This document shows, one piece after another, positions 45,624 to 47,393 of a DNA stretch of 64,000 nt. Within the stretch, counting starts at the first letter, position 1, and every line of letters begins with the position of its first letter. The notes under the pieces are model-generated. The model saw only the letters and a program-made list of their open reading frames with translations, ran no database searches and was not told the origin of the DNA. The translations under genes were made by a program, and so were the position numbers. This stretch comes from Corallococcus exiguus (GTDB lineage: Bacteria; Myxococcota; Myxococcia; Myxococcales; Myxococcaceae), in NCBI RefSeq assembly GCF_051058965.1, contig NZ_CP183924.1. The stretch is one strand, 5' to 3'.

Positions 45624-45627
<4 letters not shown>

Positions 45628-46634
45628 TTCTGGGCCAGCTCCTCCAGGAACTCCGCCTCCTGGATGAGCCCCTTGCGGATGAGCAGGCGGATGAGGCTCG
45701 CGACCATGCGCGCGGGCTTCACCTTCTCCGTGTCCAGGCTGGCCTCTTCACCGCGCGAGATGCGGTCGATGTCGTCCAGCACCGCCAGGTCCTCCTCGGA
45801 GAAGTCCGGCTTGGGCGTGAGCGCCACGGACGGCTTCACGCCCTGCGCGGCACCGCCGAAGAGCACCACCGGCACGCGCGGCTTGCTCGGGTCCTCCGGC
45901 TCCGCGGGAGGCGGAGGAGGCGGCGGACGGGCAGCGGCGGGAGGAGGCGGCGGACGCGGGGCCTTGGGGACCTTGGGACGGGGCGTGGAGCCCAGGATGT
46001 CCTCCAGCACCTCCGCGCCGTCGGCGGACGCGTCGCCGTCGTGCGGCGGAGGCGGCGGCAGGTCCCAGTCCAGCGTCGGCGGCGCGGGCGGGCGCGGCGG
46101 CGGAGGCGGGCGCGCGGCCGCGGGAGGGGGCGGCGGCAGGATGTCCGGCGAATCGTCCTCGTCCATGTCCATCGGTTCAGCCTCCACGATGTCCAGGGGC
46201 TCGCCCCGGCCGCGCGCGAGCGCCTGCTCCAGGTCGTCCGGCGCTACGACGAACACCTTGAGCGGCTTGCGCAACTGGAAGCGTAGCTCGTCCACGAGCA
46301 TCAGGTTGCCCGGGTCTTCCACCGCGACGTGGATCTTCTCGCTGCGGCCGTCCTGCTCCGCAGCGAAGAGGAGCACCCGGTGCTCGGTCTGGAAGTCCAT
46401 GGACACCAGCGAGGACACCGCATGCGGGATGTACTCGGGGATCTCCACGAACGGCAGCTCGTGCTGCGCCGCCAGCGCCCGCGCGATGTCCCGGCCCGTG
46501 CACAGGCCCATGGACACCAGCACCTCACCCAGCTTGCGGCCCTGGCCGCGCCGTCCGGACGCGAGTGCCTGCTTCACCTGCTCGTCCGTCACCACTCCGG
46601 CCTGGACGAGGAGTTCACCAATCTTCTTGCGCAT
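45624..46634 (-). CDS. Stand-alone MshEN (T2SSE_N-like, c-di-GMP-binding) domain protein with a Pro-rich linker and a short conserved helical C-terminus.
   Basis: Both 24-residue MshEN motifs are present: [24 protein letters not shown] and [24 protein letters not shown]. No ATPase domain. Confidence 0.75.
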
Positions 46635-46643
46635 GGCCGGGGG

Positions 46644-47393
46644 CTACCGCTTGACCTTGGCGAGGTATTCCTCGCGGGAGAAAACGCCCTTCTCGATGAG
46701 CAGCTCGACCATGGCCTTCAGCGCCGCGACCTCCTTGCGCTGGACATCCTCCACGCTCTTGAGCAGCTCCGAGGGGCTGCCTGAGGCCGCGCGAGGCGCC
46801 TCCGGCGGGGGGGCCTGGCGGGGAGGCGGCGCGGCGGCGGGCTTGGGGGACATGGCGACGGCGGCGGCCGGGTCCAGGTCCTTGAGGTTCTTCACGACGG
46901 TGCGGCCCTGCGCGTCCACCACCTTGAAGTTGGTGTCCGCGTCCTCCAGCTCCGCCGTCTCCTCGTAGAGGCGCGCGAACGCCCGCGCCACGGAGGTGCG
47001 CCCGGCCACGTTGGCCACGATGCGGCACTTGGACAGGGCCCGCAGTTCGTCCAGCACCCGGACGTTGAGCGGGTCCGACATGGCGACCACCAGCGTCTTG
47101 CCGTCGTCGCGCAGCTGCAGCGGGACGACAGAGAAGTCGCGCGCCGTCTGCGCCGGAATCTTGGCCTTCACGTGCGGCGGCACCATCTGCACGGAGTCCA
47201 GGTTCACCGCCGGCATGCCCAGCTGCTTCGACAAGGCGCGCACGAGGATGTCCTCGGAGACGAGGTTCATCCGGACGAGGATCTCGCCCAGCTTCCCGCC
47301 CCACTTGGCCTGCTCGGCGAGCGCCGCCTTGAGCTGGCTCTCCTGCAGGACGTTCGCCTTGATCAGCAGTTCTCCAAGCTTGATCTGTGCCAT
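46644..47393 (-). CDS. Stand-alone MshEN domain protein, paralog of the neighbouring gene.
   Basis: KLGELLIKANVLQESQLKAALAEQ and KLGEILVRMNLVSEDILVRALSKQ. Same architecture: Pro-rich linker and a C-terminal helix (KAMVELLIEKGVFSREEYLAKV). Confidence 0.75.
   Translation of the reverse strand: MAQIKLGELLIKANVLQESQLKAALAEQAKWGGKLGEILVRMNLVSEDILVRALSKQLGMPAVNLDSVQMVPPHVKAKIPAQTARDFSVVPLQLRDDGKTLVVAMSDPLNVRVLDELRALSKCRIVANVAGRTSVARAFARLYEETAELEDADTNFKVVDAQGRTVVKNLKDLDPAAAVAMSPKPAAAPPPRQAPPPEAPRAASGSPSELLKSVEDVQRKEVAALKAMVELLIEKGVFSREEYLAKVKR

Follow-up and report, generated by a model that had tools for sequence, protein, structure and literature searches.

The 64,000-nucleotide stretch of Corallococcus exiguus DNA analyzed here (contig NZ_CP183924.1, hereafter the window; G+C content ~70%) encodes two adjacent proteins, MshEN-A and MshEN-B (A and B for short), that carry the MshEN domain, a receptor module for cyclic di-GMP (c-di-GMP), but not the ATPase to which this domain is joined in MshE and PilF. 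The locus raises the question of what a detached pair of such modules might act upon. The analysis presented below suggests that A and B are most likely a c-di-GMP-sensing adaptor pair acting in trans on the products of their own gene string, which leads from A and B through two ATP-binding cassette (ABC) ATPase genes and an extracytoplasmic function (ECF) sigma/anti-sigma pair into Kil cluster II.

Up to 22 MshEN genes were reported for Myxococcus xanthus in a study that also describes many non-ATPase architectures of the domain (Wang et al. 2016, PMC5013675), and 17 MshEN proteins were counted in a later study (Kuzmich et al. 2022, PMC8844925). Almost none of the 17-22 MshEN proteins encoded by M. 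xanthus and its relatives has a known role. The original prediction for this locus, made from the sequence alone, took an ATPase to be the normal seat of the domain and thereby understated its known range.

Two stand-alone MshEN proteins in tandem

Both open reading frames were confirmed as the tandem, stand-alone MshEN proteins of that prediction. A, with 249 amino acids, is encoded at 46644-47393 (-) and B, with 336 amino acids, at 45624-46634 (-). The two genes are separated by 9 nt, and the stop codon of B overlaps the GTG start of a dppD-like gene (GTGA). Records of C. exiguus contain a protein identical to A and close to exact matches for its neighbors. The proteins share one architecture, in which a complete MshEN domain is followed by a Pro/Ala-rich linker and a conserved C-terminal helical hairpin. 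They are the orthologs of M. xanthus MXAN_4667 and MXAN_4666, respectively, which Supplementary Table 3 and the alignment of Wang et al. 2016 list as MshEN proteins, placing them in the PilB column, apart from the FrgA/PulE column (PMC5013675); the N-termini printed for MXAN_4667 and MXAN_4666 in that supplement are those of A and B. A is 82-85% identical between Corallococcus and Myxococcus, and B 51-61%. Across Corallococcus, Myxococcus, Stigmatella, Hyalangium and Archangium the identity of A ranges from 73 to 99%; few genes of the block are as conserved as A, and B diverges faster.

A Pfam scan returned MshEN (PF05157) as the sole domain match in either protein, with E-values of 5.2e-15 for residues 58-147 of A (55.6 bits) and 1.9e-12 for residues 59-141 of B (47.4 bits), against a gathering cut-off of 23.1. 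The NCBIfam model of the 53-residue MshE-type c-di-GMP motif (NF053729, cut-off 38) scored 64.8 bits in A and 61.7 bits in B. No C-terminal T2SSE ATPase domain (PF00437, Walker motifs) was found in A or B with Pfam or NCBIfam, bearing out the predicted lack of fusion to an ATPase, and the PilB, GspE and NfrB family models align to the MshEN part of both proteins alone, the PilB and GspE models being covered over their first ~150 residues only. In phmmer searches against the PDB, the structure of MshE with c-di-GMP (5HTL) was matched at 2e-10 by A and at 5.7e-12 by B, and PilF GSPII domains and PilB N-termini were matched as well. AlphaFold2 (AF2) models built on 44-sequence alignments reached predicted local distance difference test (pLDDT) values above 90 for residues 1-143 of both proteins. 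In Foldseek searches these predicted structures resembled 5HTL, the complex against which the original prediction had proposed to check them, with template modeling (TM) scores of 0.82 for A (2.5 A, E 5.5e-10) and 0.77 for B (2.9 A, E 2.5e-8), and c-di-GMP-bound PilF GSPII-B structures were also among the top matches of both models. Since Pfam, NCBIfam, the PDB search, AF2 and Foldseek agree, the MshEN observation is real and far beyond chance.

Two 24-residue c-di-GMP motifs can be delineated in each protein. In A they occupy residues 5-28 and 34-57 (47223-47381, -; the NF053729 match covers residues 5-57), are joined by the five-residue linker AKWGG, and each open with KLG and end in Q; W31, G32, G33, G36, Q28 and Q57 are invariant in the 44-sequence family alignment. 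In B, the NF053729 match and a residue-by-residue alignment to Vibrio cholerae MshE (VcMshE, 5HTL) place them within residues 4-57 (46464-46625, -), at residues 4-27 (KIG) and 34-57 (KLG), with a six-residue linker and Gly at position 10. Position 24 is Gly in the first motif of B, with Arg next to it, and Gln in the second. The deviations from the published motif are three: Asn in place of Gly at position 10 of both motifs of A, the six-residue linker of B and the Gly end of B motif 1. On the NF053729 scores both motifs are complete in each protein, as had been predicted, whereas the Gly that the prediction required at position 10 is not present in A.

These deviations bear on the possibility that the MshEN domains are degenerate or purely structural, and that A and B are non-binding scaffolds, like XpsE and FrgA, whose position reflects inherited synteny. 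Both Asn10 in A and Gly24 in B motif 1 would fit such a scenario, and failure to bind c-di-GMP is on record for several MshEN proteins (PMC5013675). However, the equivalents of VcMshE G11, I19, L29, R38, G40, L54, L58 and Q61 are retained or conservatively replaced in A and B, and changing the corresponding residues of XpsE abolishes binding (PMC5013675). The (R/K)(L/I)G triplet is near-universal in the N-termini of related loci (118 distinct sequences for A, 122 for B). The terminal Q is near-universal in A, and in B it predominates, with K, R, H or G as alternatives; position 10 is variable among the A sequences. The NF053729 scores of A and B, moreover, lie far above the cut-off. PilB proteins with Asn at position 10 reportedly bind c-di-GMP. 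Loss of the binding function thus appears unlikely, and on sequence grounds A and B probably bind c-di-GMP. They would then constitute an old tandem pair of cytoplasmic MshEN-type c-di-GMP receptors.

The stop codon of A and the start codon of B (46635-46646, -, in the window) share a reading frame in 42 of 50 loci, with gaps of 6, 9, 12, 15, 21, 24, 33 or 39 nt. Fusion of A to B by stop-codon readthrough was considered and judged unlikely, because out-of-frame gaps of 10, 11, 19, 23, 26 and -4 nt exist too.

Linkers and C-terminal hairpins

Beyond the MshEN domain, the Pro-rich linker and conserved C-terminal helix noted in the original prediction were recovered in both proteins. In A, a weakly predicted beta-hairpin (residues 156-168, AF2) and a disordered stretch with 28% Pro and 31% Ala (residues 170-205) lead to two confidently predicted helices, at residues 207-234 and 240-248, that are near-invariant among orthologs. 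This C-terminal helix and hairpin (residues 207-248, ..ALKAMVELLIEKGVFSREEYLAKVKR; 46650-46775, -; pLDDT 91-95) is kept in more than 100 clusters at 50% identity. In B, the disordered linker extends over the 134 residues from 145 to 278 (45801-46202, -), with low pLDDT and 34% Pro; the short motifs PPPPP, LLG and VPVVxFGGAA are invariant within it in the 44-sequence alignment, and AF2 places helices after it at residues 280-293, 306-320 and 326-335, the last two with confidence. Variation of the linker gives B a length of 292-854 amino acids among orthologs, and one remote B-type protein reaches 1337, but the last ~35 residues of B are almost invariant.

Profile alignment shows the C-terminal hairpin of A to be homologous to that of B (hhalign probability 94.7%, E 6e-8, 27 columns). 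The hairpin, which in B comprises residues 306-335 (45630-45719, -), also looks like a third, degenerate repeat of the 24-residue motif, a feature that is new from this work. When scored with a position-specific matrix derived solely from the N-terminal motif copies, the hairpin came third within A and third or fourth within B, according to the scoring window chosen. Relative to the other proteins encoded in the window it reached the 99.9th percentile or higher, and the B hairpin outscored every one of 5056-5101 null windows. Both hairpins match the motif in the same register, without the (R/K)LG triplet. Comparison of the hairpins with the N-terminal motif copies gave hhalign probabilities of 64-78% in three of four cases, with 73-78% for the B hairpin, and of 8% when the A hairpin was compared with A's own N-terminus. 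In remote B proteins, LG is retained at the expected hairpin position, as in LALGRLLLDKGVITEAELLRAL.

Conservation of the gene string across related loci

To place A and B in their genomic context, we compared 80 genome loci, 80 metagenome loci and 7 individual contexts, annotated by tblastn with proteins from the window and from remote loci. The comparison covered 10-kb flanks per locus, beyond which lies an SgmT-like kinase gene described below, and the HD-GYP gene of the window was not among the tracked genes. The string formed by a lolB-like gene, A, B, the ECF sigma factor, its anti-sigma factor and Kil cluster II, with dppD/F-like ATPase and DUF2085 genes as a variable insert, is kept in ~160 loci at A identities of 37-99%. 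An exhaustive family search yielded more than 100 clusters at 50% identity, with members of 215-300 amino acids that align to A end to end, C-terminal motif included. The few named remote members of the A family are metagenome-assembled genomes (MAGs) of Myxococcota, and the succession of A, B, ECF sigma and anti-sigma is kept in remote Myxococcota MAGs.

The loci follow three layouts. Layout I, found in cultured Myxococcaceae and in the window, consists of lolB-like, A, B, dppD-like, dppF-like, DUF2085, ECF sigma, anti-sigma and Kil II genes. Layout II (26 loci, A identity 48-69%) adds a binding-protein gene and two permease genes directly upstream of A, resulting in the order SBP_bac_5, two BPD_transp_1 permeases, A, B and two ABC_tran/oligo_HPY ATPases, with gaps of a few nt (for instance in L069:5688-14557, L064, L068, L073, L076 and L108). 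Because A and B are placed here between the permease and ATPase genes, they are embedded in a complete dpp-type operon. In layout III (soil contigs, A identity 42-50%), ABC genes are absent and the order is lolB-like, A, long B, one further gene, ECF sigma, anti-sigma, CpaB, TadB, TadC, FHA and FHA. The further gene between B and the ECF sigma gene encodes a conserved protein of ~330 amino acids with no Pfam match (L168:12685-13686).

We binned the loci by A identity (>=70%, 55-70% and <55%). B adjoins A in 43/44, 21/25 and 49/49 loci of the three bins, respectively, and the ECF sigma gene is found downstream in 37/38, 19/19 and 21/22. ABC genes are present in 38/38, 18/19 and 8/22 loci, and Kil-II genes come after the ECF gene in 30/30, 12/12 and 13/16; they directly follow the sigma/anti-sigma pair in 55 of the 58 loci with enough sequence beyond the ECF gene. 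The most faithful companions of A and B are the ECF sigma and anti-sigma genes and, in the Myxococcaceae, also those of the DppD/F-type ABC ATPases. This association withstands rearrangement of its surroundings. Kil II is inverted in Archangium and Cystobacter, yet its linkage to A and B is kept, and the insertion or loss of dpp genes and the presence or absence of minor-pilin genes are tolerated as well. One lineage (L061, L100, L101, L103 and L104; A identity 61-71%) has lost B, so that A abuts the dppD-like gene, and retains the rest of the string, including the ECF/anti-sigma and TadE/TadG genes. The varied rearrangements around a constant core argue for selection on the linkage of the MshEN pair, the ECF genes and Kil II. 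The existence of the MshEN pair and of a split-off Kil ATPase is already in the literature; the breadth and rearrangement-tolerance of this linkage and the dpp-embedded variant are new here.

Two further observations concern the same loci. In Archangium and Cystobacter, a TadG-like gene and the Flp-type pilin gene run in inverted orientation with respect to the MshEN operon. In two remote Myxococcota loci (L090:3739-4773 and L092:2874-3872), the TPR, lolB-like, A and B genes are preceded at a distance of a few kb by an oppositely oriented REC-GGDEF gene of the diguanylate cyclase type, which could be a local source of c-di-GMP.

The ABC ATPases and a possible peptide importer

In the window, the gene overlapping the B stop codon encodes a DppD/OppD-like ABC ATPase (44596-45627, -) and is followed by the gene for a DppF-like ABC ATPase (43544-44599, -; NF008453, 411 bits, cut-off 408). 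No permease or binding-protein gene for these ATPases is present anywhere in the 64-kb window. Since the two proteins (43544-45627) are 78-83% identical between genera, they are, on sequence grounds, orphan ATPases under strong constraint.

This arrangement suggests an alternative in which A and B would serve a Dpp/Opp-type peptide ABC importer as regulatory subunits, using c-di-GMP to gate its DppD/F ATPases, and in which the connection to Kil II would be indirect, for example through the uptake of prey peptides. The translational coupling of B to the dppD-like gene in the window and the insertion of A and B between permease and ATPase genes in the 26 loci of layout II argue for a physical link to the DppD/F-like ATPases, and the importer scenario gains further from the constraint on the orphan ATPases and from five different layouts, those of the remote loci L087 and L090 among them, in which the next gene after B encodes an ABC ATPase. 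Against this, ABC genes occur in only 8 of the 22 most divergent loci, which led us to reject the ABC ATPases as a universal partner, and they are absent in L089, L091 and L092, though A and B persist there. Furthermore, neither the window nor any of the cultured Myxococcaceae loci has a permease or binding-protein gene nearby, and to our knowledge there is no precedent for MshEN control of an ABC importer. We regard an importer-gating function as rather unlikely.

The ECF sigma/anti-sigma pair and Kil cluster II

Downstream of the ATPase genes, the string continues with genes for a small DUF2085 membrane protein (43168-43575, -), an ECF sigma factor orthologous to MXAN_4662 (42456-43103, -) and a transmembrane anti-sigma factor orthologous to MXAN_4661 (41029-42459, -). 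The latter is a classical one-pass membrane protein, with a zf-HC2 domain, a transmembrane helix at residues 94-112 and a TPR-like periplasmic C-terminus. Next comes the core of Kil cluster II (32851-40968, -), identified as such from PMC8460266 and PMC12075869. It encodes an 86-residue Flp-like protein (40708-40968, -) in which the prepilin motif G-QAMVEYSMI precedes a hydrophobic helix and which, with no Pfam match, is probably a KilK-like pilin, together with CpaB/KilB (39657-40475, -), two TadB/C-like T2SSF proteins (37829-39578, -) and two FHA proteins (32851-37755, -). In the gene table of Seef et al. 2021 the zinc-finger anti-sigma factor MXAN_4661 is the last gene of kil cluster II, and the same study describes a Kil system split over two loci, with the ATPase KilF (MXAN_3107) in cluster I. 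The orthologs of A and B fall outside the published kil clusters (MXAN_3102-3108 and MXAN_4648-4661), five to six genes beyond the boundary. The Tad-like parts that the original prediction described as lacking their ATPase (CpaB and two T2SSF genes) are thus real, and the missing ATPase is explained by the known split of the Kil system.

The earlier reading of A and B as detached c-di-GMP sensors acting on a Tad-like or other secretion ATPase can now be stated more specifically: the two proteins would supply in trans the MshEN module missing from KilF, an ATPase of the CpaF type with an FHA N-terminus, and would control pilus assembly at the motor. Their conserved adjacency to Kil II is consistent with such a role, and the same domain controls the pilus motor in cis in MshE, PilB and PilF. 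In addition, the PilB N-terminal domain docks a separate protein, PilZ, in PDB 7LKO, a structure resembled by the models of both A and B, and the determinants of Kil assembly are described as unknown in the literature. The KilF gene, however, is located elsewhere in the genome, and in the loci compared A and B are not accompanied by any CpaF- or GspE-type ATPase. The remote loci L089, L090 and L170 have no Kil-II genes downstream of the ECF gene, L087 has neither ECF nor Kil-II genes nearby, and the papers in which predicted Tad components of the kil clusters were deleted make no mention of the A and B genes. The detached modules and the link to Tad-like genes, seen in 55 of 58 loci, stand, but an ATPase target is not indicated, and control of KilF by A and B seems unlikely.

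Promoters of the gene string

A -10-like element, TACTAT, lies 13 nt upstream of the A start codon (47406-47411, -), and alignment of upstream regions reveals a TAnnnT element kept 13-14 nt upstream of A in several genera. In M. xanthus, the MshEN pair forms the first two genes of operon 24 (MXAN_4667 to MXAN_4661), for which transcription starts were mapped 5 nt ahead of MXAN_4667 and, internally, ahead of the ECF gene MXAN_4662 (PMC8844925 supplement), and both MXAN_4667 and MXAN_4666 are expressed in growth and mildly down in development (Kuzmich et al. 2022, PMC8844925). A generic sigma-70 promoter scan around the A-B pair gave no matches.

Upstream of the ECF gene, TAGACC-N17-CGTT (43144-43170, -) constitutes a candidate ECF sigma promoter and the only match of its kind in the window. 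The corresponding TA[GA]A[CT]C-N15-18-CGTT motif precedes the ECF gene as a conserved element in each of the three layouts. It has 82 matches in 1.97 Mb of related loci, 78 of them at most 160 nt upstream of the ECF gene and 3 more at the same relative place, and is probably an autoregulated ECF promoter. In layouts I and II, a palindrome (TGACAG-N13-CTGTCA) followed by TTCTCGCCACTTAC is conserved ahead of the motif. A sigma-70-type promoter with the near-consensus sequence TTGACA-N18-TAACAT was identified upstream of cpaB/kilB (~40585-40615, -); layouts I and II preserve its TTGACA and TAnnAT elements, and in layout III the conserved -10 element reads TA(G/C)CAT. Direct transcription of Kil II by the ECF sigma factor was examined as the simplest route between the two and is not supported, because the ECF motif is confined to the ECF gene and kilB is preceded by a sigma-70-like promoter, although Kil II may be reached by read-through from the ECF promoter.

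A proposed c-di-GMP-sensing adaptor acting in trans

In the adaptor reading, whose odds we place just short of even, A and B would head an operon read from a near-leaderless promoter of their own. This operon also encodes the two DppD/F-like ABC ATPases, the DUF2085 membrane protein and the ECF sigma/transmembrane anti-sigma pair, and leads straight on into Kil cluster II. In each chain, the N-terminal four-helix bundle made of the two 24-residue motifs would provide the nucleotide site, and would be continued by a T2SSE_N1-like subdomain, a flexible Pro-rich tether and the C-terminal helical hairpin. Binding of c-di-GMP to the bundle, as in MshE and PilF, would alter how the N1-like subdomain and the tethered hairpins engage partner proteins from their own gene string; pairing between the A and B hairpins is conceivable too, which we offer as an idea and not as a result. 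The c-di-GMP level of the cell would thereby be passed to the module and so to Kil-dependent predation.

Regarding the direct partner of the adaptor, we tentatively put the ECF sigma/anti-sigma pair first, as a candidate that still falls short of probable. The DppD/F-type ATPases are a more doubtful choice, and the Kil machine, KilF included, is an unlikely one, as is a partner of some other kind. The RsiG-type motif E(X)3S(X)2R(X)3Q(X)3D was not found in A, B, the anti-sigma factor or the sigma factor, and a search of the same four proteins for PilZ-type motifs gave isolated [DN]xSxxG matches only, with no RRxxR partner. A more elaborate version, which we consider improbable, would make A and B a heteromeric c-di-GMP switch with three hairpins per chain, the orphan hairpins pairing into an extra MshEN_N-like bundle, that couples to the ECF sigma/anti-sigma pair (in some lineages to a Dpp-type ATPase) and sets the deployment of Kil. 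If true, such a switch would represent the first case of a sigma factor or ABC transporter under MshEN control, and of c-di-GMP feeding into contact-dependent predation.

Several observations weigh against the adaptor reading. In addition to Asn10 in both motifs of A, the published relaxed motif is unmatched in 49 of the 118 distinct A N-termini. Literature searches on MXAN_4661-4669, on stand-alone MshEN proteins, on MshEN with ECF factors and on c-di-GMP with Kil returned nothing functional, and the literature searched gave no protein name, function, binding or genetic data for A and B or for MXAN_4667/MXAN_4666. The promoter signal of A in M. xanthus is strong in growth and drops in starvation (PMC8844925), but the kil genes are reported to be starvation-induced. 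In none of the 167 loci does the ECF promoter motif precede A or the Kil-II genes, and kilB has a promoter of its own. Lastly, the counted loci are phylogenetically related, so that the counts overstate the number of independent observations, and the conserved synteny may come in part from an inherited stable chromosomal region; acyl-CoA dehydrogenase and ExbBD genes are likewise syntenic.

The signals that set when and where Kil assembles are described as unknown in the literature searched, and a deeply conserved, rearrangement-tolerant linkage of an MshEN pair to Kil II bears on them. If the adaptor reading is true, the known uses of MshEN, which comprise the control of secretion ATPases and glycosyltransferases in cis, would come to include adaptors that act in trans, and the dpp-embedded variant hints at c-di-GMP control of an ABC importer, which would also be new.

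Other genes of the window

Directly upstream of A lies the gene for a DUF4292/LolB-like lipoprotein (47453-48283, -), which is not in the M. xanthus operon. This LolB1-like gene and an exbB-exbD pair point away from each other, their start codons only 42 bp apart (47453-49528), and in remote lineages a TPR gene precedes the lolB-like gene in place of exbB-exbD. The two other c-di-GMP-related genes pointed out in the original prediction, an HD-GYP phosphodiesterase and a kinase with a degenerate GGDEF domain, are both real. The first is a REC-HD-GYP gene (54075-55196, +; HD at residue 206 and GYP at 267) located 7 kb from A and B. The second, 21 kb away, encodes an 837-residue GAF-HisKA-HATPase-REC-GGDEF protein (22345-24858, -) that has LGLGVF in place of GGDEF at the active-site motif, and whose architecture we take to be that of the c-di-GMP receptor kinase SgmT. 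Three bactofilin genes followed by a ParB_N-domain gene (15830-18662, -) resemble the BacNOP-PadC cluster of M. xanthus. A MoxR-type AAA_3 ATPase gene followed by a DUF58/VWA gene (58438-60695, +) represents a common pairing unrelated to the MshEN pair.

Comparison with known systems

MXAN_4667 and MXAN_4666 are direct orthologs of A and B, at 83-85% and about 55-60% identity, respectively, with the same order, spacing and neighbors, and differ from them in nothing of kind. With V. cholerae MshE (5HTL) and the GSPII domains of Thermus thermophilus PilF, A and B have in common, in their predicted folds, the 53-residue tandem-motif bundle and the N1 subdomain, and the key residues align. The domains of MshE and PilF are, however, fused to a T2SSE/PilB ATPase and act in cis, whereas A and B have no ATPase and possess instead a tether and an extra C-terminal hairpin. 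FrgA of M. xanthus (MshEN-UNK-HEAT) is likewise a Myxococcales MshEN protein without an ATPase, but its first motif is degenerate, with no Gly, and its C-terminal architecture differs from that of A and B. The occurrence of MshEN outside secretion ATPases is also exemplified by NfrB of Escherichia coli, a glycosyltransferase-MshEN protein, and the best full-length NCBIfam alignments of A and B are to NfrB-type C-termini; in NfrB the domain is fused to an effector enzyme, whereas A and B have no glycosyltransferase.

Control of a sigma factor by c-di-GMP is known from Streptomyces, where RsiG, in the RsiG-sigma(WhiG) pair, is a c-di-GMP-dependent anti-sigma factor. This pair would be the functional analogue if A and B act on the ECF sigma/anti-sigma pair, and its fold and binding motif are unrelated to theirs. 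A precedent for c-di-GMP input to a type IV filament machine through separate adaptors that dock on an MshEN-like domain is provided by the PilB-PilZ-FimX complex of Xanthomonas (PDB 7LKO). In that complex the nucleotide is bound by the EAL domain of FimX and the MshEN-like domain is degenerate, whereas in A and B it is the detached protein itself that carries the binding motifs.

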